Below, piece after piece: positions 6,018 to 64,000 of a DNA stretch of 64,000 nt. The translations under genes and the position numbers were made by a program. The stretch is from positions 1 through 64,000 of IMG/VR virus record IMGVR_UViG_3300030372_001977; one strand, given 5' to 3'. This DNA is from a virus (taxonomy: Duplodnaviria; Caudoviricetes). The notes beneath the pieces were generated by a model. It saw only the letters and a list, made by a program, of their open reading frames with translations, ran no database searches and was not told the DNA's origin. Each line of letters starts with the position of its first letter. Position 1 is the stretch's first letter.

Positions 6018-6350
6018 TTAAAAGTCACTCATTAGTATATTATCTATTTCTTCTTGTACCTCTTCTTTTGTTGCTTGCATTTTAAAACTTAAATCAGCTT
6101 GAAATCTAGCAACCTCTTCACCATCTTTAAATATAATAATAGTAGGTACAACAGCTATTTTATATTTTTGTGCAGACTCTGTATCTTTACTTATATCTAC
6201 AATACCTTTAGTACTACAGTCTTTAAGATCCATAAACCAAGATACACCATTTGCACTATTCCAGCCAGCATTAAAATGCTTTGCTGTTACTTGTCCAAAA
6301 ACTCCTACAGAGTATAACATAGACAATAAGATAATTATATATTTTTTCAT
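6018..6350 (-). CDS. exported thioredoxin-fold protein lacking CxxC
   Basis: Signal peptide ending VFG|QV; HFNAGWNSAN in place of F.A.WCxxC; cis-Pro motif VVPTIIIFKDGEEVARF typical of the thioredoxin fold. Confidence 0.75.
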   Translation of the reverse strand: MKKYIIILLSMLYSVGVFGQVTAKHFNAGWNSANGVSWFMDLKDCSTKGIVDISKDTESAQKYKIAVVPTIIIFKDGEEVARFQADLSFKMQATKEEVQEEIDNILMSDF

Positions 6351-11869: not shown

Positions 11870-14800
11870 TTATTTTTGTTTCCATGCAGGTGGTATATTA
11901 CAATCTTTACAGTATTTATTTACAAATTTAAGAAAATTATCGTAATAATTCACACTTGTAGTTATATCTATAAAATTCTCATCTGAACATTTGGTCCAAT
12001 TCCCACCAGCTATTCCAGTCGCTGTTTCTGGATTATTGTCTTTTAAGTCAAAAGTAAGTGGGCCTACTTGATTAAAAGATATACTTACAACTCTATATAT
12101 ATACCCACTAGGCATTTTAATAACATCTCCTAAACTAAGCTTGTGCGGAGATGTAAAATATAAAGCAGGATCAGTAACTGTAGTTCCCTCTCCTGTTGTC
12201 CAAGAAGTTCCTGTAACACTAGCTCCATTTGTTGCAGCGTCATTTAAACCTGTAAAAGATCCTCCTTTTACCCATAAGTCGTTACAATTAAGCGCTACAT
12301 CTTCTATATTAGGAGTTCCTTTATCAGCGCAATTAAATAAACACCCTAAACCAAAACCATTTTCACTTTTATTAGATTTTAATACATACCCCAATAATAT
12401 TAATTTCCATTTATTCATTGTAGAACAATCTATATTTGTACCTATTTTATATTCTGTTAGCCATTCAGATCCTTTTTGAGATAAACAAGATTTTAATTTA
12501 ACTATTGCTTTTTTTAATTGTTTTGGTATACAAGGATTTTTTTCATCTCTATATAAACAACTGCCATCGTCAATAATTGCATTTGGGTTATAGTTTATAG
12601 CAAGTGGGTCTGTACAACCTTCGTATATACAAGAACCATCATCGCATGAAGCATTAGGGTCATAGTTAGATGCCAACGGATCTGTACATCCAACTGATAA
12701 AGTAGTAGTAGATATAGAAAATGTTTGCTCTACTTTACAACCAAAAAGGTCTGTAAATGTAATAGTGTAAGCTCCCGGAGCCAATCCTGAATGTGTAATT
12801 GTAGAACCATCAGGAGCAGGTGTAGGAGATACATCAGGGACATACGAATATATTAAATTTGCACTTACAGGAAGTCCAGAATAAATCTGAATTAAAAAAT
12901 GTGTAGATCCGTTTGTAGATGCATATTTAAAAGTTACTGTTCCATCTGCGATTGGTCCCGTACACGTACCCGTAGAATCTGTTGTAGTTACTGTTATATC
13001 AGGAGGACTATCACAAGGAAATTCACAACAATCTGGATCATGAACAGTTGCACTAGGAATGTCTATACCACAATCACAGCTATATTCATAGTTTGATGCC
13101 CCAGAATCTAAACATGCTTTATATTCACAAGTACCATCGTCTGTATCAGCAGCTGGATCATAATTAATTGCACAAGGATCTGTGCATCCTGGTATAGGCA
13201 TTGGCACACAACTTTGCTCGCAATCTACTAAACTGCTATATTGACCTGTACCATCTCCTGGATCATAACAAGAACCTGTTACAAGATCACATTCCCAAGA
13301 TTCATATATACAAGGTCCTGGACATAAAGCGTTTGGATTATAATTTAAAGCTGCTGGATCAGGGCACCCAGAATCAGGGACTCCATCAAAAACAAAATCT
13401 TGTGTATAAACACAAATACTACCATCAGGCATGTCTACATATACTTCCTGAGTATAAGTACCTGCCCCAAGTACTTGAAGTGGTGACATAGAATTCCAAA
13501 ATGGATCAAACACCATTAGCTGAGAATGACCAAATCCCACTCCATTGGCATTAATTGGGCTAGTATGACCCACACCATAACCAGATATATCATTTGCTGT
13601 CCCAGAACTATTTTGATTAGGGTGAGCAACTCCATTAAAAAGCCAAACTACTGTAAAATAACCTGGACCAAAATGGCCCGGTCCAATCGTTCCAGGACCA
13701 CAACCAGGAGAATCATACAAAGCGAAATGCCAATGCAAATATGGATTACATTCATTAGCTCCATTTGAGTTTTGACCCCCTCCTCCATTACAATTAGTAA
13801 ACCAATAGTTAGGATCGTCAGAAAGTTCAAAAGAATGATCTGACGGGACCGGACAGTTACTAGGAGTACATAAACTTGAGTCTGGAATTCTAAAAGGTGC
13901 TGCTACTGTTGTGTTATAGTCTGAAGAATTAACATCATCACAAACCGGAACTTTTACTGTAATATATACCCAAGTAAAACACTCTTCTGCTTCTAAAACA
14001 TTATTTGAATCAACAAACTGTATTTTAATAGCATAGTGACCAAAACCCAGACCTGTAAAAGTATGCTGAGGAGAGTAACTAAAAGTATTTGATGCTATTC
14101 CTGTTTGCTGACTAATAACCGATCCTATTGTGCTAGGATCTCCAGGTACTGTAACTGGATATATCCCCATTGTATAAGTCTCAGTAGCACCAAGGCTTAT
14201 ATATTGTTGTAAAGCAGGGTCTATGCTTGTTGTTAAAGAAACAGTACCATCAGATTGTGGAACATTACTTGCATTTACAGTTGCATCAGTAACAAGAGCT
14301 ACATGATTAGTAAATAAATCTCCTGCAATATTTCCTGCAGGATCTTCTAATTTTCCAGTAGTAGCATTACACACAACGCATGAACCATCATCATTAACTG
14401 CTGAGGCGTCATAATTTATTGCTGTATTGTCTGTACACCCGTCTGGAACAGCACAATCAGCTAAAGTTATATGTAATGTTTTTTCACACCCATCTTCATC
14501 TGTAACTTTTAAAATATAATACGTTCCTAATAATGCCCCTTCATTAGGAGCAAGACTTCCAAAGTAAAATCTAAAGCCAGCTGCAAAAGTTAAAGTTACT
14601 GTAGCGGCTGCTGTTGCTTGAACAGTATTTCCTACAGCATCTATAAGTGTAAATTTTGTTACATTGTTACCTGCTGTCCCAGTTAAAATATTACCAACAT
14701 AAGTTCCAGCTGGTATTCCTGCCCCACTTACTTGCATCCATGGTGTAATAGTGCTGCTAGAAGGACAAGTAACTTCATGTTCTGTTCCACTTGTTGTATT

Positions 14801-16405
14801 TGTTACACAGTTAGCTTGAGTAACTGTATTTCCTCCTGTTGGAGGCATAGTTTGGGTTAAACTGTTTCCATTACTTAAAGTTAAGTTATAGGTATACTGA
14901 CTACCACTACTCCATGGATTTCCTGTAGTAGTAGTACTAGTCCACGCAGGATTTGTAGTTGTAACTTCAATAATTTTATCATTTACACCATAAGTTCCAC
15001 AATGTGGAGTAGTAGATACTATTTCTAAAGTACAATTTGAACAACAAGCGTTATTAGGAACAAAAGTAGTAATGTTATGATTTGCTCCTCCTGGTAAATT
15101 AGCTGCTGGAATAGTTGCTCCACTACAATCTTTACTAGTTGTTAAATAGTATGAGGGATCACCAGCTTCATCACAAACATTAAACACGTGAAGAGGATTA
15201 GGAGGCGCAGGAGCTGTTAAATTTTCTGCATAAAATATTTTATATACATAATGATAGTGTGGGCTATTAGAAGTGTCTGCACCTCTTGTAGCTAACTCGT
15301 AAGCTGAATTCCAAGTCATTATATTATCACCAAAGGAATCCCACACCTCTGATCTTCTATACAGATTTCTTATATCTATTCCCGGATCAATAGGTGAAGG
15401 CTCAACACTACCATAAGGCGGAACAGGCCAGTTATCTCCAGAATAAGTTCCTTGCATAAAGCCAAGGTTTGAATTCATTTGATTTATTATGTTTGGAACG
15501 TTCATTAAAACACCTCCTTGTGTTTCTAGATTGTCATACCATAAAGGATTATTTTCTTGTAAAAGAAAATCTATAGAGTGAAATTCTTGTCTATTAGGAT
15601 TACCCGCATCAGGAGTAGTAAGAGCATTTAACCCATATATATGAGCAAGTCTATCATCATGACCAGAAATCGTACCTCCAGAACCACAAAAACCATGATC
15701 GTAAAGTACATTATTAACATCAGACTTTACATGTAAAAACTGCTCTGATGGTGTAAAGCCTGGATTTGTATTTACCCCTATAGTGTTTGCATGAACTCCA
15801 CTATATTTTGAAAATATATAAAAAGGCTCAGTTACTAATAATCCAGAAACTGTAAGACTACCTGCAACTCCCTTATTTTGAGATTGTAAAGAATAAAAAT
15901 TATTCACAGGAAGACCAGTAGCAGGATCTATAGCCGCATTTAAATGTGTATTGTAATAACCTTGTTGAAAATAAGACTCTGAACTTGAGCCTGGCTGGTT
16001 TGCTAATTCAACCAAATCCATAATAAACCAAGGACTGTTTAAACCATCGTGGTGTGCCTTTATGGTCATAGGTATTTCAAAATACTCAATATGACCACTT
16101 GTAAATGTAAGTTTTAATGTTCTTATTGAAACTATAGTAGTTATAGGAGTAAATGGGGGTAAATATTTTAGCGTAAAAGTTTGCCCTGGAGTTCCTCCAA
16201 TAGAATTTAGTTGTATTAAAGGTGCATTACCATCTCCAGTTGTATCTGCTACATCTACTAAAAAATCCCACCCTGTTCCACTAGCCTTATTATCATGTAC
16301 CTGAATTTCAGGCATCTCTGGTCCGCCATACAGCCCATTTACACCTAGTAGTACACCCCAAAATTTAGGAGGATGAGAAGATATAGTAACAAGTCTTTTA
16401 GACAT
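11870..16405 (-). CDS. large Cys-rich tail/structural protein with GCTD repeats
   Basis: 1511 aa, no signal peptide; about 6 GCTD..A.NY repeats, Ig/SprB-like segments (ITFTDLFGC), helical C-terminus; follows the ring-protein genes. Confidence 0.6.
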   Translation of the reverse strand: MSKRLVTISSHPPKFWGVLLGVNGLYGGPEMPEIQVHDNKASGTGWDFLVDVADTTGDGNAPLIQLNSIGGTPGQTFTLKYLPPFTPITTIVSIRTLKLTFTSGHIEYFEIPMTIKAHHDGLNSPWFIMDLVELANQPGSSSESYFQQGYYNTHLNAAIDPATGLPVNNFYSLQSQNKGVAGSLTVSGLLVTEPFYIFSKYSGVHANTIGVNTNPGFTPSEQFLHVKSDVNNVLYDHGFCGSGGTISGHDDRLAHIYGLNALTTPDAGNPNRQEFHSIDFLLQENNPLWYDNLETQGGVLMNVPNIINQMNSNLGFMQGTYSGDNWPVPPYGSVEPSPIDPGIDIRNLYRRSEVWDSFGDNIMTWNSAYELATRGADTSNSPHYHYVYKIFYAENLTAPAPPNPLHVFNVCDEAGDPSYYLTTSKDCSGATIPAANLPGGANHNITTFVPNNACCSNCTLEIVSTTPHCGTYGVNDKIIEVTTTNPAWTSTTTTGNPWSSGSQYTYNLTLSNGNSLTQTMPPTGGNTVTQANCVTNTTSGTEHEVTCPSSSTITPWMQVSGAGIPAGTYVGNILTGTAGNNVTKFTLIDAVGNTVQATAAATVTLTFAAGFRFYFGSLAPNEGALLGTYYILKVTDEDGCEKTLHITLADCAVPDGCTDNTAINYDASAVNDDGSCVVCNATTGKLEDPAGNIAGDLFTNHVALVTDATVNASNVPQSDGTVSLTTSIDPALQQYISLGATETYTMGIYPVTVPGDPSTIGSVISQQTGIASNTFSYSPQHTFTGLGFGHYAIKIQFVDSNNVLEAEECFTWVYITVKVPVCDDVNSSDYNTTVAAPFRIPDSSLCTPSNCPVPSDHSFELSDDPNYWFTNCNGGGGQNSNGANECNPYLHWHFALYDSPGCGPGTIGPGHFGPGYFTVVWLFNGVAHPNQNSSGTANDISGYGVGHTSPINANGVGFGHSQLMVFDPFWNSMSPLQVLGAGTYTQEVYVDMPDGSICVYTQDFVFDGVPDSGCPDPAALNYNPNALCPGPCIYESWECDLVTGSCYDPGDGTGQYSSLVDCEQSCVPMPIPGCTDPCAINYDPAADTDDGTCEYKACLDSGASNYEYSCDCGIDIPSATVHDPDCCEFPCDSPPDITVTTTDSTGTCTGPIADGTVTFKYASTNGSTHFLIQIYSGLPVSANLIYSYVPDVSPTPAPDGSTITHSGLAPGAYTITFTDLFGCKVEQTFSISTTTLSVGCTDPLASNYDPNASCDDGSCIYEGCTDPLAINYNPNAIIDDGSCLYRDEKNPCIPKQLKKAIVKLKSCLSQKGSEWLTEYKIGTNIDCSTMNKWKLILLGYVLKSNKSENGFGLGCLFNCADKGTPNIEDVALNCNDLWVKGGSFTGLNDAATNGASVTGTSWTTGEGTTVTDPALYFTSPHKLSLGDVIKMPSGYIYRVVSISFNQVGPLTFDLKDNNPETATGIAGGNWTKCSDENFIDITTSVNYYDNFLKFVNKYCKDCNIPPAWKQK

Positions 16406-16424: not shown

Positions 16425-16940
16425 TTAACATTCACACCCACAACTGCCGTCACAAAGTTCTTTTGCTTTTTTATATTTATCATAAGCATCATCGTAATGC
16501 CCCATAACAGTACTACCCCAAGGATCAGAATTTATTTCTTCTACTTTAGCTATAGCAGATTGTATTAATAAGTATATTTTTTGAGCTTTTGCTAAAGCAC
16601 TAGAACATCTTGGACAATCGCACTCACATGCTAATAATTCATTAGTTAACTTTGTTAAACAACAGTCTATATCACAATGAACTAAAACTGCTTTAGTCAT
16701 ATGTCGAGTACTTCCAGCCTCTTCTACTGTAACCATAAAAACTCCTGAACTGCTAGCTAAATCAGCAATAGGAATACGTAGTTTAGTAACAGCGCTAGTG
16801 CTTATATTAATAGGATAGGTAATTGTTGTTCCACCAGGAACGTCAGTTATTTTAACATCTCCAGTTGCAGCAGAAGTATAAGGTCTATAAGTTACGTCTA
16901 TACTTTTACAAAAATTTACAGATTTAATATTTAATGCCAT
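16425..16940 (-). CDS. Cys-rich tail ring/adaptor-like protein
   Basis: CDIDCC...CECDCPRC...CDGSCGCEC; position in the crAss-like tail module. Confidence 0.5.
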   Translation of the reverse strand: MALNIKSVNFCKSIDVTYRPYTSAATGDVKITDVPGGTTITYPINISTSAVTKLRIPIADLASSSGVFMVTVEEAGSTRHMTKAVLVHCDIDCCLTKLTNELLACECDCPRCSSALAKAQKIYLLIQSAIAKVEEINSDPWGSTVMGHYDDAYDKYKKAKELCDGSCGCEC

Positions 16941-20691: not shown

Positions 20692-22164
20692 TTAACAAGT
20701 TGAAGCAGAAGCAGTAGAAGCTACACATGTAATATCAATTGAAGTATCAAATCTCTTAAGAGCGATACCTGCAGTTTTTAACATATGTACGCTTGCACCG
20801 TCAACATCAGATGCTCTAGATGAAGTTGCATCAAATCCTCTAGGGACTACTGATCCAGCTACACACCATCTCATAGACTCACGACCTTTCTTAGAGATCA
20901 TTTGTAAGTTATTTTGACCATCATAATTTGATTGGTCAACAAATACCATTCTATAAGACTCTAACGAGTATCCAGTGTCTGGGTGTTTTGCACGAGCTTG
21001 AGCAACAGCACCATGGTCAAATAATGGTAATTTTACCACATTAACCATATGGCCATCAACATGCTCATACGAGTTAAAGTATCCAGTTAATCCTAATGAT
21101 CTACCAGATCCAGTTACAAATTTACTTTGGTCAATTACTTTCCAAGTGTTACCTGAGAAATGGTTTTTAAGTGCCTCATCAAATTCACGAGCACCTCCCG
21201 TACCAGTGTACAGAGTTACTTGTTTTTGAGTTGCATCAGTCATTCCGTAGAATAAGTCACCAATAATATTCTTAAGTTTACACTCAGTCATTGTAGAGTA
21301 AGTATCTTTGTTTACTATTTGTTGTAGAAGTCCAGGACCTATGATTACTGGCTGACCATTCTCATCCTTCATGTAAGTCAATCCATTTGCATCATAAGTT
21401 TTTTCTCCGTACCAGTAATAATTTTCACACTCTTCTTTAAAGTCAAGCATGTGTAAATACTCTTCGTAGTCCATCCAAAGTTTAGTAGTAGAACCTCCTT
21501 TAGTAGGTAAAGAAAACTCAGCTACATAATCTTTAGCATGCCCAGACATGTGGTAAGATTTTCTTACAGTTGTAAGTTTATTTCTTACTAATCCTGGAGC
21601 TTGCCAGTTTGAAGCGTTACCTCTAGAGAAGTCTGTTCCAACTGGTGCATATAATTGCCCCCATATAGCTCCCGGTAAACAGTCTGATGCTGCTACAACC
21701 GCTGCTGCATTTGGGTCTACGATTTGTACTGTATATTCCCAATCTGTACCTGAAGCTGCCATTTCTGGTTCTTTCATGATACGCACTTGAGTACCTGATT
21801 GAGATACTAAAACGTATGGGAAAATAAAATATTTGTCAGGAAAAGTCAATAAAAAAGTTGCTCCTCCAATACCTATTGCTGCCCCTGTTGGGCCTGCTGC
21901 TGATAACGGTCTCGTTCTCAATTTATGTGTTGCCACACGATACTCATATTCTAACCTGTCAATAGATTTTACATTACCAACACCTTCCGTTAAGAACGAT
22001 AGAGGGAATCGTTTATCATCTTTACCTGCTAAATGAGTTATGATTGGAGACAGTTCAGCTGGTTTTGATAGCATAGCATTTGCTAAGCTATTCATATCAG
22101 TCATTTGTGAATCATTGTAGAATGTTTTTACAACGCTGATATTCGATCCTGTTGTTACTGCCAT
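20692..22164 (-). CDS. major capsid protein (crAss-like)
   Basis: 490 aa; FPLSFLTEG, RNKLTTVRKSYHMSG, GPGLLQQI, LYTGTGGAREFD, SYEHVDGH motifs; between scaffold-like and tail genes. Confidence 0.9.
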   Translation of the reverse strand: MAVTTGSNISVVKTFYNDSQMTDMNSLANAMLSKPAELSPIITHLAGKDDKRFPLSFLTEGVGNVKSIDRLEYEYRVATHKLRTRPLSAAGPTGAAIGIGGATFLLTFPDKYFIFPYVLVSQSGTQVRIMKEPEMAASGTDWEYTVQIVDPNAAAVVAASDCLPGAIWGQLYAPVGTDFSRGNASNWQAPGLVRNKLTTVRKSYHMSGHAKDYVAEFSLPTKGGSTTKLWMDYEEYLHMLDFKEECENYYWYGEKTYDANGLTYMKDENGQPVIIGPGLLQQIVNKDTYSTMTECKLKNIIGDLFYGMTDATQKQVTLYTGTGGAREFDEALKNHFSGNTWKVIDQSKFVTGSGRSLGLTGYFNSYEHVDGHMVNVVKLPLFDHGAVAQARAKHPDTGYSLESYRMVFVDQSNYDGQNNLQMISKKGRESMRWCVAGSVVPRGFDATSSRASDVDGASVHMLKTAGIALKRFDTSIDITCVASTASASTC

Positions 22165-52627: not shown

Positions 52628-55600
52628 TTATTGTAGTGTTGTAAACCACTTATAAGCATCACCAGGAGAACCGGATCTAGTAAATCCTCTCCATATAGGT
52701 AGTAGGTCCTCAAAATCTTTTCTTATTTTACGATCTCCTTTGTTAAATCTTCCTGTACGTCTTTGGTAGTATACGTCTTTTTCATCTACCCACGGTGCAA
52801 CACCGCTAAAGTATCCAAGGTCTGATCCTATTTGGCTCATTAATTCAAAACCTTTTTCTATTGGCCTTGCCGTTGCTGTAGGAGATCGCATAATTCTAAA
52901 TGCTTCTTTGTAACCTACAGCTGGATTCCACTGCATAATTTCTGTGTGGTATCTTTTAGCTTGGTACATAGCAAAGTTAACTGCCCAATCGTCTTCATCT
53001 GCATCTAGACTAGCTAAACCATTAACTATTGCTGCTGCAGCAATCATAGCAGATAGTTCAACAAATGTTCTCTTAACATTTTGACGTTCCATCTCTGTCA
53101 TTTTACTGTATGCAAACTCTCTATTTGATATAGACTCTCTTATCATATTCCAAAAAGATATATACATACCCTGTGTAACAGTTCCTAATTCTTCATCAAC
53201 TCTTAACGTACTTCCTCCTCCGTGACCATAACGTCTTCTAATTCCTGGTAACAGCCAGCTTCTAAACAACATTAATAGTTTACCGTATGCTCTTCTTTGC
53301 AGCATAGGCTGATGCATCTTACCTTTAGTTTGATTTGTTCTTCTACTTAAACCTTGCACTAAACCTATAAAATCTAAACGGTTAAAGTTATCTACTCTAG
53401 GGTCTACAGACATTACACCATCTTTATCTATAGTTAACATGTCGTATAAATCTGCAGGTTCTCCTTTATCATTCTTTATAACATTTCCATCACTGTCTTT
53501 TAACTTACCTTTTAAACTTCTCATTAAGCCAAGTAGTCTAGTACCGGATAGTTCATGTTCTGCAGCCTGTTGTAAAAACAATAAATTATTTGTACTTAAG
53601 AATTTTCTAGCTTTACCTCCTACTATTTGATTACCTTCATGATCTGTAAATTCTGTTAAAGCATCAAAATATTCCATTGCTTTACCAAGTTTAGTTTTAG
53701 GGTCAAATCTACCTATATCTGTCATCGCTCCCCCTTCAAACCAGTACTGAGTTTTAGCCCAAGCAAGGTCAGATGCAGACATAAATTGTTTTGCAACTGC
53801 TTCTTGCGCCATAGTAAGGTTATCAAGTATTAATTGGTTAGTACCTTGTAGCAAGTTAAATGATAGAGTGCTTATAGCTGTAAAGCTATTCAAAGCGCCT
53901 ACTGCTTTAGTTGCAGAAATTCCTCTAAAGTTTTGCTTTAGTTCATTCTGACCAAACATAACAGTATCAATCCATTCGTCAACGTGTTTAAAGTTAAATG
54001 AATCTCCTTCTTTAAGTAGTGGCATTTTGAAGCCCATAGCTTCTGCAGTTTTTTGTATATACTCTATTCCTCCTGAGTTAGTTACTAATGTTTTTCTATC
54101 TTTTATAATATCTCTAAACAACATAACTTGACCTACAACTTCTGATTTAACTTTATAGTTGTGAGCCATATGTCTAAATTTATATAAACTACTAGCAATA
54201 TCTCTAGAGACATCCGATGCTGGGACTCTATTAGTATAGTATACAGGCACACGTTTATTTAGCTCACCACTATTTTGATCATAAGTACCAAATTGGTCAT
54301 CTGTTTCTACTATAGAAAATCCTTCTTTTAATATATCTTTAGTACCCGCTAGCAAACCTTGCTCTCTAAGTCTATCAACATCTTCTTTTCTTATAGACGG
54401 CATTAAATAAGAAAACTTATCCCAAGAATTCTTATCCATACGGGTAGCCCCAACCATTTCGTGTCCTTTTTGTAACTCCTCTAAAACAAAATTATAATAT
54501 TCTTTTAGTATAGGATTATTTTGTATTTTAATATACTTTAAATTAGTATACTTATCTTTTCTAGGTCTTACCCATTCTCTCCTAGGAGAACCTGTAAGAG
54601 AGTTATAGTTTGCATCTTTAAATTTTATAAGCTCTTGCAATCTACCGGTTTGCATAGAGTACGCATCGCTGTCTTCTTGACCGTCCTCTTTTAACTTTTG
54701 TCTTAATTTTCTAGCTTGTTCTATTTGTTTATTTAAAACCTTTAGCTCTTGTCTCCAATTATCCACAGGCTCACTATTTTCTTTATCCCACTTCGTTTCT
54801 TCTTGCCTAGCCCTTTTGTAATTGTTTGATAATTTCCATGCTGAATAAGCAGCTTTAAAAGCTTCTTCAGACTGACCCTCTCTTTTTTGCGGTTGACCAT
54901 ACTCTATATTTATTTTTTTAATAAATGCTTGCTTATCTTTATAATATTTATCTGAGTCAATAGGATTAACTATAGCTAATCTTTTAACGCCCCTTATAGT
55001 TACCTCTTCTAGTAAATCATCATTTAACTTAGATACATCAGATTCAGATCTACCTTCTGCAAATTTATTATATGCGGCACTTAGTTTAGATTTAAACATA
55101 CGAGTCATGTCATTCTTTCTTAAATCCGCATCTTGTACAGACTTAACAAATAATTGTATAGCATTATCATTACTATAGATTAGTGGGTCTAGTAAGTATG
55201 AAAAACCACTCTTATCTTTATTTGCTGCTCTTAGTTGTTTAACTAAGGCCCCATAGTTAGGGATCATTTTATTTTTAAGTTGCTCTACTTTTAAATCTAC
55301 TTTTTTATTTAAGAATTCTACAGCTGTAATTTCTCCCGCATCAAAACTTTTTTTAAGCTCTTTGTATTCTATTGTTTGTGTGTTTAGTCCTTGTGTTCTT
55401 TTATACTTAATTGCATTATCAATCTGAGCTTGTAGTTGCGGATCAATTGCTTTATTATGGTAACCAGATAAAAACTGTGCCATTATAGGGATTACCTCAT
55501 CATTAAATTTCATACTATATACTCTAGCTGATCTTAAAATAGAATTTAATCTACCTTCTAGTGTATCAAACTTACCCTGATCTAAAACTTTACCCTCGTT

Positions 55601-56989
55601 TTCTTTAACAAGCATAACAACTTCTAATGCTTGCATTACATCTAGTGCATCTAATTCAGTTTTTAATTTGTATATTTCACTCATATTTTCTAATGTAGCT
55701 CTTTCGTTTTCAGGAAGCTCCATTATTTTATCATATGTATTAATTGCAGAAGCTAATGAATTTCCCATACTATTTACAGTAGCTAACAAATCCTCTACTT
55801 TTTCAACTTTATCTAAACCTTGCTTAAGATTCTGTAGTTTATAAATACGTTTTTCTCGTTCTTCTGGTGGTAATTGCTCTACTTCATATATTTCAGATGC
55901 TATCCGTACTTTTAAGTTTTGTACAATTTCTGTAAAGTATTCTGAATGATCTCTGCTTTCCTGTGTGTAAGGACTTATAGGATTAAGCATTCCCTCTGCA
56001 CGAAGCTTTTTAGCAAACATTTCTTCTGCAATAATTGCAGCTGCGTTAGGTTCAATACCAAATAGTTTTCCAAATGCACGCAATATTCTATTTATAAATT
56101 GTTGTAGTGGACTAGGATTATCTCTTACAATTCTAGCGCCTTCTAACCCAATTGCTGTAGCTAGTACTTCTTTGTCTAATCTTTCCCCGGTTAATTCAGG
56201 ATACATTTCCTGCACTTTTCTGTACAAGTTAGTATCTCTAAGCTGAGCTATTGCTGCAGCTACTACAGGGTCGTTAACACCTAACATGTCAATATAAATA
56301 TGACCAAACTCATGATAGGCAGTGTCATCTTTTACTTTGTTAGGATTAAGAACTACCACGGGATTTGTTTCTCCTGGCCTTACTTCTCCTAAGTTATCTA
56401 TTTCAGTATCATATATAACATCTACTACAACACCTGCTTTAGAAAATGCCTCTTTTAACTGTACTACCTTAGACTCAAGCCTATCTATATCTTCTTTAGC
56501 CATGTCAGAGAACTTACTCTGATCACTAGTATTCTCTTGCCTTGCTTTCTCTGATAGATAATAATCTTCCGTATTTTCTTTACCTGCAACAAGACGTACA
56601 TACTGATCTAATTCCGTCTGGTCGTTATATGTAAAGTCTGCAGTTTCTGGACCCTCTTTTTGTATAGTTTTTAGTAAAGCTTCATTAATATCTAACACAT
56701 GCAACTCTGATGCTCTAGAATAAATAGTTTCTGGGGTTGTTTTTATAAAGGTAGTTTTTAATAATCCCGGATATTTACCATTTATTCTTTCTATTTCTCT
56801 TAAGCTAGGTTGTAGATTAGCTTGGTTTAAATATGTAGAACCACGGAATTTTGTAGCTATACCATTGTTTTTCAATATTTTATACACTGCATTAGAAGTT
56901 TTCTTTTCTGCAGATGTATTATCCATGTAGCCATATAACTCTGTATATAACTTACTTTCTACTCCATTTATATAATATTTACACGCCAT
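52628..56989 (-). CDS. giant virion cargo (ejection) protein with zincin motif
   Basis: 1453 aa, helical; AYHEFGH (56314-56300) with downstream KEVLA; adjacent to the vRNAP gene as in crAss-like phages. Confidence 0.75.
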   Translation of the reverse strand: MACKYYINGVESKLYTELYGYMDNTSAEKKTSNAVYKILKNNGIATKFRGSTYLNQANLQPSLREIERINGKYPGLLKTTFIKTTPETIYSRASELHVLDINEALLKTIQKEGPETADFTYNDQTELDQYVRLVAGKENTEDYYLSEKARQENTSDQSKFSDMAKEDIDRLESKVVQLKEAFSKAGVVVDVIYDTEIDNLGEVRPGETNPVVVLNPNKVKDDTAYHEFGHIYIDMLGVNDPVVAAAIAQLRDTNLYRKVQEMYPELTGERLDKEVLATAIGLEGARIVRDNPSPLQQFINRILRAFGKLFGIEPNAAAIIAEEMFAKKLRAEGMLNPISPYTQESRDHSEYFTEIVQNLKVRIASEIYEVEQLPPEEREKRIYKLQNLKQGLDKVEKVEDLLATVNSMGNSLASAINTYDKIMELPENERATLENMSEIYKLKTELDALDVMQALEVVMLVKENEGKVLDQGKFDTLEGRLNSILRSARVYSMKFNDEVIPIMAQFLSGYHNKAIDPQLQAQIDNAIKYKRTQGLNTQTIEYKELKKSFDAGEITAVEFLNKKVDLKVEQLKNKMIPNYGALVKQLRAANKDKSGFSYLLDPLIYSNDNAIQLFVKSVQDADLRKNDMTRMFKSKLSAAYNKFAEGRSESDVSKLNDDLLEEVTIRGVKRLAIVNPIDSDKYYKDKQAFIKKINIEYGQPQKREGQSEEAFKAAYSAWKLSNNYKRARQEETKWDKENSEPVDNWRQELKVLNKQIEQARKLRQKLKEDGQEDSDAYSMQTGRLQELIKFKDANYNSLTGSPRREWVRPRKDKYTNLKYIKIQNNPILKEYYNFVLEELQKGHEMVGATRMDKNSWDKFSYLMPSIRKEDVDRLREQGLLAGTKDILKEGFSIVETDDQFGTYDQNSGELNKRVPVYYTNRVPASDVSRDIASSLYKFRHMAHNYKVKSEVVGQVMLFRDIIKDRKTLVTNSGGIEYIQKTAEAMGFKMPLLKEGDSFNFKHVDEWIDTVMFGQNELKQNFRGISATKAVGALNSFTAISTLSFNLLQGTNQLILDNLTMAQEAVAKQFMSASDLAWAKTQYWFEGGAMTDIGRFDPKTKLGKAMEYFDALTEFTDHEGNQIVGGKARKFLSTNNLLFLQQAAEHELSGTRLLGLMRSLKGKLKDSDGNVIKNDKGEPADLYDMLTIDKDGVMSVDPRVDNFNRLDFIGLVQGLSRRTNQTKGKMHQPMLQRRAYGKLLMLFRSWLLPGIRRRYGHGGGSTLRVDEELGTVTQGMYISFWNMIRESISNREFAYSKMTEMERQNVKRTFVELSAMIAAAAIVNGLASLDADEDDWAVNFAMYQAKRYHTEIMQWNPAVGYKEAFRIMRSPTATARPIEKGFELMSQIGSDLGYFSGVAPWVDEKDVYYQRRTGRFNKGDRKIRKDFEDLLPIWRGFTRSGSPGDAYKWFTTLQ

Positions 56990-56994
56990 ATATT

Positions 56995-59900
56995 TTAACT
57001 TTTACAAACTTTTTGTGCCTGCTGGTCTTCTTTAACGATGACCGGTGGTTTTGGTTGTTGGAACTTAGCGCCAGGCCTATCAGTTGTAGTATTAACTGCA
57101 AAATTAACTAAACTTTCTGAATTACTACTCGATATTCCTGACTCATTTAATTTTCTAGATTTACCTAACATTGATAATCTTTGGTATTTACCGTTTTCTA
57201 CATTTACAAATACATTAGCCTGACCTGTAGCGTAAGATAAAAAGTAATCTAAATTTAAATTATTATCTCCGTATATTCTAGAGTCTTGTTTATTAAAACT
57301 TACAAATCCATCTGGACTCATTTTAATTTTTCTAATAGTTTTTAGTAGTGACACTCCTCCCGGGCTTTGCAATCCGTATGTTCTTACAAACTCATGCTGG
57401 AAGTTATCAAAGTAATCTGTCTTAGTTAACGCTGTAGCTTCTTGTCTAAAAAACTCTACAGGACTTTCTGCTGATGTATTTAACATGTTTGTAGTTAATG
57501 CTTCTGTAGGTATTAGATCTATGTAGCTTCCAAATGTAGGATTAAAACCACTAGTTAGAATTTGATTAACTACAAGAGATTTACCAAAGTCTCGTATTTC
57601 TTCATTAGGACTACTAATCAATTGGTTTAAACTATCACTAAACTGATTCTTATCTGTTGTAGATATTCCTATTGGTAAATCTAAACGTAATAAAAATAAA
57701 CCGGTTTCTTTATTAGATGGATCCTCTTCTAGAGCTTGTACAAATAAATTATTATTTAGTTCTGGATACTTAACTTTTATTTCTTCTAGTTTAGTAACTA
57801 GATTATTATTAGGATTTATATACATATTTCTAAAAGTATTTTCAGAAATAATACCTCCATCTATAAAAGGACTGTTAGGCTGAGTCATTATCTTTAAAAA
57901 TAATGCTCTGTCTATTAGTTTATGCTGCTTGTCTGTAAATCTAGAGACGCCTAGAGATTCTTTTAGGTTATCTTTAAATGTATTGAATGCTGGAGAATTG
58001 TTTATAAACCCTGCTCGACCAGCTTCTTCTAGTATAGTATCAAATATCCCTCTATATGCAACTCCTATAGGATTTAACGGCTTGTCTGTTCCTTTATTGT
58101 GTAGTATAAACTCTTCTGCTCCTGATATTAAACTGTCTACATTATTTAGATATAAATTTTCTCTATCTATCCAAGCTATAACCGATGATAGTTCGTTTAC
58201 ATTATCTATATTATCAGGTGTTATAATTTTATTTACAGTTTGTAATGCTCTACCTGCTTTGTAAAATGTTTTAAAGTTTAGTAGATATTGTGCTTGTAGC
58301 TCAGGATCTGCTTCTGATAGATTATCTTGCAATTGTATTGAAGACATAGGAAAGTTTGGTGCAAAATCAGGATTGTTTATTTTATATTTTTTAGCTATTT
58401 TATCTATAGACTGATTAAACTCTCCTAGAGATCTTGCATTTAATTTTGCATCATCTGTAATCTCTCTAATTATAGGTTGGTTTACAAAGTTTAATGCTGT
58501 ATCTATAGGAATACCTAAACTATAGAATAGTCCTAAAACTGGATTAGTATATATATTATCATTTATATCTAACTGTATAGGCTCCTTAGCATAATCAGTA
58601 GCTCCAGATAAGTGCTCTGATATATTAGCATCAGTGTAGTTTCCTTTTATGTCTTTTGTAACTCCTAAATCTCCATAGTTTACATTGTCAATTGACAGCA
58701 TAAATTCTGGTTTTAATCTTAAAAGCTTTGCAGTCTCTGATACATTTCTACCCGCCAAATGATTTGCCCATAATCCAATTAGACTAGCTCCTTCTTTAGT
58801 TCTCTCTTCCATAGCTATTTCTGCTAAAGGACTGTTGTAATCTATTGTAGTATCTACACCAATTTTATCAGATAAAAATGCTTTAGAATCTCTTAGACTT
58901 TGTATATCTAGTGGCTTTATAACTTCTTCTAAATGTTTTGCATCTGTTAGTATAGACTTAAATACATCAAATACTACATTGTTTCTTTCTTTTCTACTCA
59001 TTTTAGAAGGGTCTACAGAATAATCCGGTTTAACAACGTTTCCATCTGTATCTACTTCAGGGAGTATTATATTTAGCTTATCAATATCAAAGTCACTACC
59101 CATCTGTACAGTTATAGCTCCAGGTACCATGATAGCTTTTTCATGTGACTCTGGTAAAAAGTCTACTACCTCCATAAACAATGATGAATTCTTACCCTGT
59201 TGAGGTATACGATACCCAATAACTTGTAGTTTTTCTTTTGGTACATCTTCTATTTTAACGTTAGGCTCTAATCCTAATGCGCTAGCTTTTATTCTTATTT
59301 GTGCAGCATTTGTTCCGTCATAAAACTCTAACTCTCCACTTACTGTATGCCCACCAAGCTCTGCAATCTGCACTAACTCTTTACCTTTAAACTTCTGATT
59401 AAACAGTTCATTATTATATGTGCTCATAAATATACCTTCAAACTTAGCTTGATAGTTAGGAAAAGCTAGTGGTATTTTAAATGTCCAGTCAAATGCTCCA
59501 TTAGGGACTATGTTTAATGCTTCTAGATAATTATCAGGCAAGTCTCTATCTTTAATTTGCCTAGCCATTTTATCTCTAACATTTATTAGATAGTTTAGTT
59601 TAGCATCTCTATACTCTTTAGTACCTTCTCTACCCCTTAACTTTTTTATTTGTGTAATACCTAGTTCTTTTTCTAAGTTTACTCTATCTTCGTTTATATT
59701 AGCAGCTATAGATTCTCCGTATATCTTATATAGTAACGAGCCTGATACTGTAACATCTCCTAATTTATATTGCTGTGTTGGAAATATGTTTGCAGTTATA
59801 TTTTTTCTAATCTGTCTGTTAAATGCTAACTCATCTTTTTTAGTTCTAGGCATCATTTGTGGAAACCTCAACATCTTAGAGTCCATAACTGTTGGATTTG

Positions 59901-62900
59901 ACACATCTAAATTTCCTGTTCCTTCAAAATCTTGTACATTTCTTTTAGCTCCTTTAGTTGCACTTACTGTATTAACTACATCGATACCATTGTTCATAGC
60001 ATCTAACATAGTAGATAAGTAAGGGTAGAACATAGCTAACTCTGGAGTTACAACTGTATATGAATTTTTATCCATATATAGTGTGTTTACACTATTTTGT
60101 AAAGATAATTCTTCGTGGAACGGTTTTAACGGATATATAGGCATAGCTTGCCCGCTGTTATTAATATATCTATTAACTTCAGGATTTCTAGCATTGTTGT
60201 ATGCTTCTTCATCTTTTACGGTCCACTGACCTAGTCCTTGCATTATACCACGATACATCGGTAAACTAATAAATGATTGTGCATCTGACTTGTTTACACT
60301 GCGGTAGTCTTGAGCTATCTCTTCTGCTGTAAACATATCTATACCTTGACTTTGTAATGTTGTAGATAAGCTATCTGCTATTTCATTAGCTCTTTCTTTA
60401 TCTGTAAAATCAAAATCTCTAATAGTAATAGTATTATATGTAGGAGGCATACCATATGTTGGATCTGTCTCAGACATACCTTTAATAAATAGTTTATTAC
60501 CTGGTGTTTTTAGAAGAGCCATACGTTTATAGAAGTCTTCTGTATTTTTAGCAAAGCTAAATCCTCCTCTTAACACTTTAGTAATTTCTATTTTACCTAT
60601 AAAATTTTCAAATATAAAATCCTTAAGAAATTTATTACGTTTAGTATCCGTATCTAACTCAGAGCTAACTTCTGTAAACAGATCTATTCCGTAGCTATTA
60701 ATTTTTTGTACTATATCCTCTTCGTAAAGTTTTATTTTGTTTTCAACGTCATTTATTTTATCATTTAGTAATGTCTCAAACTCTTCTCTTTGTACAAATT
60801 GTTTATTTAAAATGTAGTCTTTTGTATAGTCAGACATTTCAGTACCATCTTTTAATATTGTATTTTGTAGTCCTGATATTTGTGTCATAGTAAATGCAGA
60901 ACCATCTGCCGCATAAGGATCTGCTATGTTCTTATAGTGATAACCTTCTATTAATATGCTAGGGTCACTCATTTTAAATGCTTCTATTATCAGTTCATTA
61001 GCTTGATCCATTCTAGCTAAGTCTTGTAATATTAAATTTTCTATTAACTGTTTTCTATTAGTGCTTACCCCATATTTTAAATAACTACTAATTCTAGGTA
61101 TAGTTAAAAAATCTAAAGATTGTCTTCCCGCTTGTATAGGTAATGCTACCTTAGTAAAGTTTTTACTTCCTCTGTTTTGATATGCTAGCAATCTTTCTAT
61201 TAAAGATATTTTACTAGTTTGGTTATCATAATCCGAGCTAGCTACTAACTCATCAGAAGATTTGTATGAGTCTAGCACTTCATGTATAAAGTTTCTTCTA
61301 GCCTCTTCGTTGTTATGTAGCGCAGATATTAAAGGAGATGAATGCTTAATACTTCCGTAAGGTCTGTTTAGAGGATCTGTTAAAAGCTGAGTTAAAAGTT
61401 TAATTTTTCCATCTGCTTCTTTAGGGTTATTAATTTCACTAGTAAGTTCATGTAATCTTGTAGGAAGATTAATAGGATAGTACTGTTTGTTTGTTCCGCT
61501 AATAAAGGATCCAAATGGTTTAGACTCAAATAGAGGAGCAATGTCTACAAGCTTATCCACTAAACTGCTGTGTTCTCTGTAGATGTCTTTTGGATTTTCT
61601 TGGTTAATACTATTTACAAACTTGTTAAGATTATTTCCTGGCTCAAATACTAGCCTAGAGAATAAGTTATTTTCAGCTACACCTTCTTCATTCCCTAGAT
61701 TATAATACCTTAATAAATTTTCTTGTGTTGTTTCTAGAGATGGTCCGTACTGCATACCTAATGTCCACAGGTATTCTCCTAAAGCTAGAATATCTTCTGT
61801 ATCCCATTGTCCTCTTTTTGTATTGTTAACAGCACTAATTTGATCCCAAAGCTTTACTAGTAACTCTTTCTTATCTTCTTTTACTGATATTTTATTATCA
61901 GCATCTATCATATATATAGCTCTATCATTAGGTATTAACCTTTGTCTAGAGTTTTCTCTAAATTTTTCTTTAGCCTTTTTACTTATTTGACTTTGATTAG
62001 AGTTAATAATTTTATTTGTAGTGCTTATCTGTCCTGTTATAGGATCTGTGTATAACTCACTTTTAAATAGAATAAAATTATTGTATGCTGTTTTAAAGTT
62101 AGTGAATAAAGCTGCTTCTTCTTGAGGTGTAAGTGTATCTAGCTTAGCTCTTAAAGCTACTGCTTCAGGTTTGTACAATGCATACCAGTCTAGTTTACTT
62201 CTCATGTCAGCAAAGGTAGGCTCACCTACAGCTGCTTCAGCCATAATACTGTATGCTTTATCCATAGACATAATTACAGGATACCCAAAACTGTTAAGTG
62301 TCCCTAACTTAATATTGCCTAGAATAGATCTTGCTTCAGAAGACAACTTATCTCTTGGGTTTTCTTCTAAGCTAGACATGCTATATATCTTTTCAGGAGT
62401 ATCATCAAACTCCTCCATAGTACCTGCTCTATCTGAGAGCTTCATACCATATGCCGATAGACTGTCTTTTAGTATTTCTCTAACACCTACTTTTTCTATG
62501 TTACCTGTAATAGGATTTCTTTCTGTATTCCAATTATGGTAAGCAAATATAAAAATTTGACTTGCATTGTTAGGGGCCCCTGGTACAGTGTTCATACTAA
62601 CACCTTCAGGGAGCGCTTCTACAAAAGCATCTTTACCTTCTGTAGTTAATATTTTATAAAGTCTTTTAGCTTCTTGTATATCGTCTAGTCCTTGGAATGC
62701 TTCTAATAAAAGTTTATCTGCTAAGTCTCCTTTCTCTTCTGTATCTTGAGCTAGACCAAAGTATTTATTAACGTCTCCTTTAAATGTCTCCGGATTGTTT
62801 TCTTTGACGGTATTTACAAAGTTAACTATTGTATTAATAAGCTCATCTTGTAACTCTCTCCCTATATTTAATACACTGCTTTTTTCTTTTACTTCTACAG

Positions 62901-63174
62901 GTATTTCCCAAGTATCTCCTTTGTTATTTTTAAAAGAAACATACCCAGTTTCATATGCTAATTTAGGCTCTCCATTATTATCAGTAAATAAATCTACATT
63001 ATAATCTTTTTCCCAGTCTTTACCATACCACTTCTTAAACTCTGCAGAATGTATGTCATCATAAATTTTTGTAGCTTCATTACTATCTCGTGTAGCAATT
63101 TTTAAATCTTCGTATAACTCAGATGTCTTACCGTTTGGTAGTATAGCTTTTCCTTTTTGTACTCTACAACTCAT
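56995..63174 (-). CDS. virion-packaged DNA-dependent RNA polymerase (crAss/phi14:2 gp66-type)
   Basis: 2059 aa; catalytic GSDFDIDK (59094-59080), GYRIPQQG, KSDAQ, QIRKN motifs. Confidence 0.9.
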   Translation of the reverse strand: MSCRVQKGKAILPNGKTSELYEDLKIATRDSNEATKIYDDIHSAEFKKWYGKDWEKDYNVDLFTDNNGEPKLAYETGYVSFKNNKGDTWEIPVEVKEKSSVLNIGRELQDELINTIVNFVNTVKENNPETFKGDVNKYFGLAQDTEEKGDLADKLLLEAFQGLDDIQEAKRLYKILTTEGKDAFVEALPEGVSMNTVPGAPNNASQIFIFAYHNWNTERNPITGNIEKVGVREILKDSLSAYGMKLSDRAGTMEEFDDTPEKIYSMSSLEENPRDKLSSEARSILGNIKLGTLNSFGYPVIMSMDKAYSIMAEAAVGEPTFADMRSKLDWYALYKPEAVALRAKLDTLTPQEEAALFTNFKTAYNNFILFKSELYTDPITGQISTTNKIINSNQSQISKKAKEKFRENSRQRLIPNDRAIYMIDADNKISVKEDKKELLVKLWDQISAVNNTKRGQWDTEDILALGEYLWTLGMQYGPSLETTQENLLRYYNLGNEEGVAENNLFSRLVFEPGNNLNKFVNSINQENPKDIYREHSSLVDKLVDIAPLFESKPFGSFISGTNKQYYPINLPTRLHELTSEINNPKEADGKIKLLTQLLTDPLNRPYGSIKHSSPLISALHNNEEARRNFIHEVLDSYKSSDELVASSDYDNQTSKISLIERLLAYQNRGSKNFTKVALPIQAGRQSLDFLTIPRISSYLKYGVSTNRKQLIENLILQDLARMDQANELIIEAFKMSDPSILIEGYHYKNIADPYAADGSAFTMTQISGLQNTILKDGTEMSDYTKDYILNKQFVQREEFETLLNDKINDVENKIKLYEEDIVQKINSYGIDLFTEVSSELDTDTKRNKFLKDFIFENFIGKIEITKVLRGGFSFAKNTEDFYKRMALLKTPGNKLFIKGMSETDPTYGMPPTYNTITIRDFDFTDKERANEIADSLSTTLQSQGIDMFTAEEIAQDYRSVNKSDAQSFISLPMYRGIMQGLGQWTVKDEEAYNNARNPEVNRYINNSGQAMPIYPLKPFHEELSLQNSVNTLYMDKNSYTVVTPELAMFYPYLSTMLDAMNNGIDVVNTVSATKGAKRNVQDFEGTGNLDVSNPTVMDSKMLRFPQMMPRTKKDELAFNRQIRKNITANIFPTQQYKLGDVTVSGSLLYKIYGESIAANINEDRVNLEKELGITQIKKLRGREGTKEYRDAKLNYLINVRDKMARQIKDRDLPDNYLEALNIVPNGAFDWTFKIPLAFPNYQAKFEGIFMSTYNNELFNQKFKGKELVQIAELGGHTVSGELEFYDGTNAAQIRIKASALGLEPNVKIEDVPKEKLQVIGYRIPQQGKNSSLFMEVVDFLPESHEKAIMVPGAITVQMGSDFDIDKLNIILPEVDTDGNVVKPDYSVDPSKMSRKERNNVVFDVFKSILTDAKHLEEVIKPLDIQSLRDSKAFLSDKIGVDTTIDYNSPLAEIAMEERTKEGASLIGLWANHLAGRNVSETAKLLRLKPEFMLSIDNVNYGDLGVTKDIKGNYTDANISEHLSGATDYAKEPIQLDINDNIYTNPVLGLFYSLGIPIDTALNFVNQPIIREITDDAKLNARSLGEFNQSIDKIAKKYKINNPDFAPNFPMSSIQLQDNLSEADPELQAQYLLNFKTFYKAGRALQTVNKIITPDNIDNVNELSSVIAWIDRENLYLNNVDSLISGAEEFILHNKGTDKPLNPIGVAYRGIFDTILEEAGRAGFINNSPAFNTFKDNLKESLGVSRFTDKQHKLIDRALFLKIMTQPNSPFIDGGIISENTFRNMYINPNNNLVTKLEEIKVKYPELNNNLFVQALEEDPSNKETGLFLLRLDLPIGISTTDKNQFSDSLNQLISSPNEEIRDFGKSLVVNQILTSGFNPTFGSYIDLIPTEALTTNMLNTSAESPVEFFRQEATALTKTDYFDNFQHEFVRTYGLQSPGGVSLLKTIRKIKMSPDGFVSFNKQDSRIYGDNNLNLDYFLSYATGQANVFVNVENGKYQRLSMLGKSRKLNESGISSSNSESLVNFAVNTTTDRPGAKFQQPKPPVIVKEDQQAQKVCKS

Positions 63175-63175
63175 A

Positions 63176-64000
63176 TTAACATTTTTTACCTAAGTCGTCA
63201 AAGAATATGTTTAGTTGATCATTATCGCTCTTTTTTATTGTCTTAGTTTTTGATTTTGTTTCTACTTTAGTTTCTGGTCTTATTGCGGCTAATTGCATAT
63301 CATATTTATCATTGATTTCATTTATAAGAGTTTGGTTTGTTACACCTTTTAAAGCTTTTCTTCTTTTAACTTCAATGTTAACTGCTTGGTTCCGTGTCTC
63401 TGATGAACTATATATATTTTTCATATTCTGTTCAGAGGCTATAAAAGCTTCTCTTTTAATCTTAGTATTCTTAATAATCTCTGGTGCAGTCTCACCTAGT
63501 AGATCTCCTTTCTCAAATATTACTCTAGGACTGTTAAACATACTTTCTCCTTTTCTAGTTATATCTGTAGTTAGTATAGCATTATATCCTACACCATCTA
63601 CTCTTGCTTCATCTCCTAGTTCTTTAGAGCTAAATAAATATTCTTGATAACTACTATATTGTATATCTGTTACTGGGCTAGTATATGGAGTTTTTTGATT
63701 ACCCAAATCTCTATCTACATTATATTTTTTAGTTTCTAAAAACTCTGTTAAATCTTTTGCTAGGTCTAGTTTTGATTTTGTTGTATCAGATTTACCTCCT
63801 ACAAATTTTTCATTCTTTTCAGTTACAATATGGAATGTGCTTTCTTGGTCAGTTCCTAAACCTTTTGCTAATTCGTTTTCATTTATTCTAATTAACTTTC
63901 CTAGCTTAGGACTATTATAAACTATATATTTAGTTCCATCCTCAAACTCTGCAAACTCTAAGTAGGATGGATTTGTATTAGCACCACTTCTTATAGAACT
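63176..64000 (-). CDS. C-terminal part of another cargo protein, truncated by the window edge
   Basis: The frame of the 176-aa track ORF stays open from 63706 to 64000 (98 more codons, SSIRSGANTN...); the TTG start is not real; ends ...LGKKC. Confidence 0.75.
   Translation of the reverse strand, partial: SSIRSGANTNPSYLEFAEFEDGTKYIVYNSPKLGKLIRINENELAKGLGTDQESTFHIVTEKNEKFVGGKSDTTKSKLDLAKDLTEFLETKKYNVDRDLGNQKTPYTSPVTDIQYSSYQEYLFSSKELGDEARVDGVGYNAILTTDITRKGESMFNSPRVIFEKGDLLGETAPEIIKNTKIKREAFIASEQNMKNIYSSSETRNQAVNIEVKRRKALKGVTNQTLINEINDKYDMQLAAIRPETKVETKSKTKTIKKSDNDQLNIFFDDLGKKC

Follow-up and report, generated by a model that had tools for sequence, protein, structure and literature searches.

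Paired Terminal Cysteines in the RNA Polymerase Cargo Module of a Marine Crassvirus: A Candidate Head-to-Tail Tether

Described Cargo Proteins and the Locus Analyzed

No phages are more abundant in the human gut than crassviruses, which are also common in seawater. The DNA analyzed here, referred to below as the window, is a stretch of 64,000 nucleotides representing bases 1-64000 of the 83,692-bp virus record IMGVR_UViG_3300030372_001977 (Duplodnaviria; Caudoviricetes). It carries the RNA polymerase cargo module of a marine crassvirus, consisting of three giant proteins designated A, B, and C in gene order, the second of which is a putative virion RNA polymerase (vRNAP). The few cysteine (Cys) residues of these proteins stand at the chain ends that face each other. 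The question addressed by this arrangement is how the ~5 MDa of crassvirus cargo protein is packed, ordered, and passed through the tail.

The closest described counterparts are gp67-gp66-gp65 of phage phi14:2 (gp66 is PDB entry 6VR4) and gp47, gp50, and gp49 of crAss001, which are orthologous to A, B, and C, have been described as packed in the virion, and show the same terminal-Cys pattern. In both phages, as in this genome, the ring, muzzle, and small cargo genes come first and the cargo block follows them in the same arrangement. All three proteins occur in the virions of phi14:2 and other crAss-like phages, some of which encode them as one polyprotein (bioRxiv 10.1101/2020.03.07.982082). 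These polyproteins contain the same three modules in the order A-B-C, but the modules are peptide-bonded and the junction Cys are absent; their authors expect proteolytic cleavage, whereas release by reduction is a proposal of the present work. According to the authors of the crAss001 study, the passage of the cargo through the channel requires partial unfolding, and packing together with interactions among the cargo proteins probably determines in what order they are extruded. Disulfides occur in crAss001 particles between the subunits of the tail barrel and fiber hubs and in the gp57 dimer (PMC10172136), where they rivet shell and tail and neither link ejected cargo nor lie at chain termini. 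The literature on the two phages thus describes the vRNAP structure, cargo zones, and tail disulfides; no mention of cargo-protein Cys, of an inter-protein link, or of a tether was found in the crAss001 atlas, the phi14:2 vRNAP preprint, the 2024 DEV paper, or full-text searches with crass-related terms, and the words "cysteine" and "disulfide" are absent from the preprint.

A further comparison is provided by the N4-like Schitoviridae, in which the giant ejected vRNAP and its partners (gp50/gp51/gp52 homologues) are nearly Cys-free, like the cargo proteins analyzed here, and this was attributed to passage through the oxidizing periplasm (PMC11445570). The Cys frequency in the gp71 (vRNAP) homologues is given as 0.00075%, and no terminal Cys pairing is described there for these phages, whose vRNAP belongs to a polymerase family unrelated to that of crassviruses (PMC13434306). 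Since Cys depletion of ejected proteins is known from these phages, the four Cys retained in the cargo proteins of the window stand out.

Terminal Cysteines in the Window, in Homologues, and in Gene Fusions

All three cargo genes lie on the minus strand. Protein A is represented in the window by its C-terminal 274 amino acids (aa) (63176..64000), ending in LGKKC, while the full gene occupies positions 63176-67903 of the genome and encodes 1575 aa; the sole Cys of A is its last residue (codon 63179-63181, followed by the stop codon at 63176-63178). Protein B (56995..63174, 2059 aa) starts with MSC, ends with KVCKS, and has Cys at residues 3 (63166-63168) and 2057 (57004-57006) and nowhere else. 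Protein C (52628..56989, 1453 aa) starts with MAC, its sole Cys being residue 3 (56981-56983), and there is no Cys at its C-terminus. The A/B junction (63166..63181, minus strand) therefore reads TGT (the last codon of A, Cys), TAA, one base, and ATG AGT TGT (Met-Ser-Cys of B), and the B/C junction (56981..57006, minus strand) reads TGT AAA AGT TAA (Cys-Lys-Ser-stop of B), five bases, and ATG GCG TGT (Met-Ala-Cys of C). The in-window parts of A, B, and C comprise 3,786 residues with 4 Cys, each at most three residues from a terminus. A sequence-only reading of the window, made before this analysis, had counted four Cys in about 3,790 cargo residues, all within three residues of a terminus, and had noticed that each C-terminal Cys faces an N-terminal Cys of the next protein while the last protein has no outgoing one; both statements are accurate in every detail. 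The Cys frequency over all window open reading frames (ORFs) of at least 100 aa is 1.39% (265/19,048), from which ~50 Cys would be expected in the 3,786 residues, and the probability that all four fall by chance on the 15 terminal positions is ~1e-10. Beyond the window, the three proteins encoded before A (790, 964, and 445 aa) contain zero Cys. Thus, the six cargo proteins encoded in a row downstream of the muzzle gene (7,286 aa) have 4 Cys in total, against 1.39% window-wide, and the cargo block is Cys-suppressed in the manner of ejection proteins, with a Cys frequency far below the proteome level.

Counting Cys across Crassvirales homologues, which the sequence-only reading had set as a check, revealed that the terminal Cys are conserved in the A, B, and C families. 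Of 113 full-length homologues of B (27-99% identity, mostly from marine metagenomes), 111 carry Cys both at residue 3-5 and at a position 1-6 residues before the C-terminal end; 102 of these 111 are devoid of any further Cys, and only 10 internal Cys were counted in 242,985 residues. The N-terminal Cys of C is present in 113/120 homologues and is the sole Cys in 108/120, most of the seven exceptions being short or starting at an internal Met. For A, the in-window part was searched against 1.84 billion cluster representatives; exactly one Cys was found in 35/35 full-length representatives. It lies between -1 and -5 in 33 cases, while the other two have it at -12 and -17. In the B alignment (43 sequences), M1, C3, and C2057 are invariant columns, like four of the five DFDID residues, and in the C alignment (47 sequences) C3 is invariant and more conserved than the HEFGH motif. 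Two homologues from contigs of equal length (36,324 bp) depart from the pattern on the two sides of the B/C junction: the B homologue P0016 loses similarity ~25 residues before its end and has no C-terminal Cys, and the C homologue P0169 starts at the equivalent of residue 22 and so is without Cys3. This double loss probably reflects a frameshift or an assembly error at the junction, and a real co-loss of the Cys pair is possible.

Whole cargo blocks were compared as well. The full three-protein Cys pattern is present in six related contigs (vRNAP 28-60% identical), where a protein of ~800 aa devoid of Cys comes before it; in a seventh (L005), A was left unscored because of a 100-N scaffold gap. 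Of the cultured phages, phi14:2, whose gp67, gp66, and gp65 total 5,398 aa, has one Cys in gp67 (the last residue), only Cys3 and Cys-2 in gp66, and only Cys3 in gp65. In crAss001, the sole Cys of gp47 is at -3 and that of gp49 is Cys5, and gp50 has Cys5, Cys-9, and an internal one; gp47 is encoded on the strand opposite to gp50 and gp49 and is not collinear with them, yet the rule is kept. Dulem virus 41 and cr53_1 (Suoliviridae) follow it too, and the Intestiviridae do so across intergenic gaps of 77-130 nt. The persistence of the pattern down to 27% identity and in cultured phages argues that it is maintained by selection. In a tally of 19 genomes, with Cys counted within 9 residues of each facing end, facing Cys were found on both ends at 28/29 separate-gene junctions as annotated; the 29th (cr110_1) counts only with an in-frame MSC start 14 codons downstream, identical to the start of cr11_1, which brings the tally to 29/29. 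The outer ends had Cys at 0/18 N-ends and 0/18 C-ends (0/36), and the number of C-terminal Cys equaled that of N-terminal Cys in every genome examined. The distance of the Cys from the chain end varies (3-7 at the N-end, -1 to -9 at the C-end), the gaps between genes range from -1 to 28 nt, i.e., the genes abut or overlap, and the terminal Cys codons are 30 TGT and 2 TGC, which is uninformative in AT-rich DNA. As for the giant protein of cr110_1 (MT774386, L016:11376-24629), an in-frame MSCTVKITNNDNL is identical to the beginning of its cr11_1 orthologue, and the annotated start is probably 14 codons too far upstream.

The strongest evidence that facing Cys are partners comes from natural gene fusions, which were found by searching for longer homologues. 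Their modules stand in the order A-B-C, as in the separate genes. Three ABC fusions (P0122, P0124, and P0132; 4,652-4,937 aa) contain zero Cys. In at least seven AB fusions the only Cys lies at the C-terminal end and the N-terminus is free of Cys, while BC fusions have the N-terminal Cys and lack the C-terminal one; P0148 contains that Cys only, and P0125 and P0126 have one internal Cys besides it. At the four fusion loci examined, the protein following the fusion in both AB cases has a single Cys3, and the A protein preceding it in both BC cases has a single Cys at -2 or -3. Hence the two Cys of a junction vanish together precisely where the neighbors have become peptide-bonded, and the second pair is retained. 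Exceptions among the longer homologues are P0129, P0130, and P0137, with one internal Cys each, and P0141, P0147, and P0154, with many. Cyclization of B on itself through its two ends was considered and rejected, because the AB fusions and P0148 have one Cys each, and P0125 and P0126 have two, neither of them C-terminal. Several of the longer B and fusion forms (P0023, P0056, P0063, P0102, P0125, P0127, P0134, P0141, and P0148) carry extra domains in precomputed Pfam annotations, namely DUF7831 (PF25176), ART-PolyVal (PF18760), YbiA-like DUF1768 (PF08719), and cpYpsA (PF12694), so enzymatic passengers ride on the ejected polymerase module in some lineages.

The residues around the terminal Cys form short consensus motifs: M-[AS]-C-[RK] at the N-end of B, K-[IV]-C-[KR]-I at its C-end, M-[AG]-C-K-[YF] at the N-end of C, and [NQ]-D-C followed by 0-2 residues at the C-end of A. 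No second conserved ligand was detected near the Cys, the neighbors being K/R, small or aliphatic residues, and D/N in A; His occurs in 0-13% of the terminal 20-residue stretches. In the structural models, Cys3 of B and of C directly precedes a short beta-hairpin and a pair of helices, which are predicted with confidence: the mean pLDDT is 77-94 for residues 1-90 of B and 64-93 for residues 1-110 of C. The B head matches the N-terminal domain of 6VR4. The C-terminal Cys are located in polar, charged, or Pro-rich tails. Each junction may accordingly be pictured, from these models, as a flexible tail meeting a folded head.

The two heads were also compared with each other. A profile-profile comparison of residues 1-120 of the B head (62785-63174, minus strand) and C head (56630-56989, minus strand) gave a probability of 88.5% and an E-value of 2.7e-6 over 45 columns. 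Both heads share M-x-C-[KR] followed by NG-x-x-S-x-L-[FY]-x-x-L, and both models begin with the beta-hairpin and two helices. Without the first four residues the match fell to an E-value of 7e-4 (probability 26%), the best control reaching 0.014. A structural search with residues 8-114 of the C head returned unrelated rows only (Z 4.0-4.5), with 6VR4 not listed, so that the relation between the heads is carried by this weak profile match. B and C may thus begin with a shared type of acceptor module that receives the preceding protein's tail.

Proposed Tether and Alternative Explanations

From these results, it is somewhat better than an even guess that A, B, and C are joined head to tail through two terminal Cys pairs, most likely as disulfides. 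Cys3 of B would bond to the C-terminal Cys of A, and Cys3 of C to the C-terminal Cys of B, after packing of the proteins and oxidation of the particle. The product would be one linear thread of ~5,100 residues, a post-translational equivalent of the single ABC polyprotein encoded by other crassviruses. Because no link would be more than a few residues away from a chain end, the thread would be unbranched and able to pass the channel, and because all other Cys have been purged, competing disulfides would be impossible. The partly unfolded thread would then move through the narrow portal and tail channel, and the reducing host cytoplasm would cut the links and free the three proteins. The head-to-tail linkage in gene order advanced by the sequence-only reading is thus partly supported. 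The comparative data speak strongly for its core, the pairing of facing Cys, which are present at all 29 junctions, absent from the 36 outer ends, and lost on fusion, and the rule also holds in crAss001 with gp47 on the opposite strand; the chemistry of the link (disulfide or metal), one-chain ejection, and cytoplasmic separation are proposals that go beyond what sequence can show. Its suggestion that such a link fits the known auto-inhibited state of the phi14:2 vRNAP was not borne out. That state has been attributed to a cleft-blocking domain at residues 196-233, and the enzyme was purified in 1 mM dithiothreitol (DTT) and crystallized with 2 mM tris(2-carboxyethyl)phosphine (TCEP) (bioRxiv 10.1101/2020.03.07.982082). 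As the auto-inhibited state was seen in the presence of both reductants, reduction alone does not relieve it.

In two-chain clostridial neurotoxins and diphtheria toxin, one disulfide holds the translocated chain to its partner in a narrow channel and is reduced in the cytosol. The likeness to these AB-type toxins is a functional analogy only: they are unrelated, target eukaryotes, and contain one link between two chains derived from one precursor, whereas the proposed crassvirus tether would join separately translated proteins end to end and is proposed here from sequence. The proteins belong to known families, and the tether, if real, would apply in a new way a known principle, that of redox-cleavable disulfides between the chains of translocated proteins. 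It would provide a mechanism for equal packaging of the three polymerase-module proteins, for their ordered and processive exit, and for protease-free release, and it would explain why the module consists of one, two, or three genes in different lineages. A broader generalization, held more tentatively and at slightly less than even confidence, is that of a "terminal cysteine code" in Crassvirales. Under such a code, the giant cargo proteins, including the vRNAP, would be joined after packaging into an unbranched, redox-cleavable thread that is spooled through the tail and parts in the cytoplasm without a protease, with gene fusion and fission switching freely between the peptide-bond and disulfide forms. 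The rule is kept by relatives from sea water to the human gut, and it can serve as an annotation aid, finding true start codons (as in cr110_1) and module boundaries in very divergent crass-like genomes.

Several points weigh against the tether. The bond itself is proposed from sequence, and the crassvirus literature covered makes no mention of it. The proteins are synthesized and packed in a reducing cytoplasm, so oxidation would be needed inside the capsid, and gut crassviruses live anaerobically. The purging of internal Cys is not universal, as gut Intestiviridae and Suoliviridae have 3-7 internal Cys per protein in 4/5 genomes and 16 in the fifth. Some fusions carry inserted junction domains and cannot be aligned residue by residue; in particular, the BC junctions of P0125 and P0126 contain such domains and do not align to separate B and C pairs, and the replacement of the Cys is not visible there. 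Finally, the homologues are mutually related, so their counts represent non-independent events. A search for a phage sulfhydryl oxidase (PF04777) gave no match; the control genomes gave none either, so this result is uninformative.

Other explanations of the pattern were considered. It is unlikely that each terminal Cys acts alone, bonded to some third part of the virion, such as the portal or inner capsid, or in homodimers (A-A, C-C), with the matched numbers arising as a side effect. Such independence is helped by the fact that sequence alone cannot name the partner of a Cys and that fusion removes both termini and, with them, any function that depends on a chain end; it is opposed by the contrast between the Cys-free outer ends and the junctions with Cys on both sides, and by the equal numbers of C-terminal and N-terminal Cys. 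Moreover, the ABC fusions without any Cys imply that the role is replaceable by a peptide bond between neighbors. The facing pair might instead bridge a metal ion as a shared thiolate site with no disulfide, which had been raised by the sequence-only reading. Two thiolates can hold some metals linearly. This is nevertheless improbable, since each terminus offers one Cys and no other conserved ligand nearby, and the near absence of His from the terminal 20 residues disfavors a conventional metal site.

There is a small chance that the link forms only during infection, with free thiols in the particle and host periplasmic oxidases cross-linking the proteins as they cross the envelope; the lack of Cys in ejected phage proteins has indeed been ascribed to the disulfide-forming periplasm (PMC11445570). 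However, the vRNAP must reach the cytoplasm, and the equivalence of the ABC polyproteins before ejection is left unexplained. In matrix metalloproteinases, the pro-domain acts through a cysteine switch, and Cys3 of C could by analogy be the ligand keeping a zincin protease latent, as C has HEFGH at residues 226-230 and its residues 158-290 weakly resemble zincin proteases. This is very improbable: six C orthologues without HExxH retain the N-terminal Cys, which weakens the idea, and it explains neither the A-B pair nor the loss of Cys on fusion. The chance that the pattern is a coincidence, a gene-calling artefact, or a junction DNA signal that happens to encode Cys is negligible. The genes do abut or overlap, and the Cys codons are nearly all TGT, as AT-rich DNA predicts, but the pattern is kept to 27% identity with varying offsets, and it holds for the non-collinear crAss001 gp47 and across the gaps of 77-130 nt, which shows that it is no by-product of junction DNA; together with the fusion data and the tally of 19 genomes, this refutes the explanation. 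Split-intein or ligation chemistry was also considered and rejected, as the Cys lie 0-8 residues from the chain ends, leaving no room for such a domain. Weighed against these alternatives, the head-to-tail tether remains the favored explanation.

Protein Identities and Other Features of the Window

Protein A was identified as the orthologue of crAss001 gp47 (BLASTP 1.8e-15). Protein B matched 6VR4_A (phi14:2 vRNAP gp66) at 5e-24 over query residues 321-1377 (phmmer), and tblastn matches to phi14:2 g066 (2e-20) and crAss001 gp50 were obtained. The folded model of its N-terminal 130 aa gave a Foldseek match to 6vr4_A (E 5.1e-4, TMq 0.59). The DFDID catalytic motif of B is located at 59080-59094 (minus strand; residues 1361-1365), where D1361, F1362, D1363, and D1365 are invariant in 43 sequences and I1364 varies. 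Judged by these matches, B is distantly related to the virion RNA polymerase of phi14:2 (gp66 family), and its packing in the virion and ejection are inferred from orthology and gene order.

Protein C is the orthologue of phi14:2 g065 (BLASTP 7.5e-37) and crAss001 gp49 (1.7e-32), with the similarity extending over the C-terminal half. Its HEFGH zincin motif occupies 56300-56314 (minus strand; residues 226-230), and in 47 close homologues its residues H226, E227, F228, and H230 are nearly invariant. The AlphaFold2 model of residues 1-340 had a mean pLDDT of 60.8 (54-72 across the motif region) and gave no Foldseek match at E <= 0.001 and no match in Pfam. For residues 158-290, the top rows of the VIA-align search were mostly zincin proteases, at only Z 5.0-5.5 (root-mean-square deviation 3.9-4.0 Å, 87-113 residues aligned). 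Because the model is weak and these matches are low-scoring, the zincin fold of C is not confirmed. In addition, HExxH occurs nowhere in six distant orthologues (L003, L004, L005, L012, crAss001 gp49, and Dulem virus 41; loci L003:16225-20118, L004:16213-20088, L005:18121-21987, L012:22664-27937, L008:13434-17483, and L014:19015-23010), and the label "zincin" therefore fails for the family as a whole. Neither PHROGs nor Pfam assigned A, B, or C to a family; megablast against phages yielded no match, and a search of viral contigs for related loci yielded no relative. The identity of the proteins of this phage to their phi14:2 and crAss001 orthologues is only 22-26%.

Upstream of the cargo block, in the part of the genome beyond the window, lie a muzzle-family protein of 1917 aa with 18 Cys (match to the crassvirus family PF25731, 7e-40) and ring protein 1 (PF24228, 1.9e-56). 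The resulting gene order (ring, muzzle, three small Cys-free proteins, A, B, and C) is the same as in crAss001 from gp44 (muzzle) through gp45, gp46, and gp47 onward. The window itself contains three very Cys-rich proteins, in contrast to the cargo block, with 51 Cys in 972 aa (2900-5818, minus strand), 54 Cys in 1511 aa (11870-16405, minus strand), and 12 Cys in 171 aa ending with SCGCEC (16425-16940, minus strand). A structural-block protein of 490 aa (20692-22164, minus strand) has Cys as its final residue (ASASTC) and 6 Cys overall. Adjoining the 972-aa protein is a 110-aa ORF (6018-6350, minus strand) with a signal-like N-terminus, a single Cys, and no CxxC, which gave a weak thioredoxin-fold match (PF00085, 22.7 bits, just below the cut-off).

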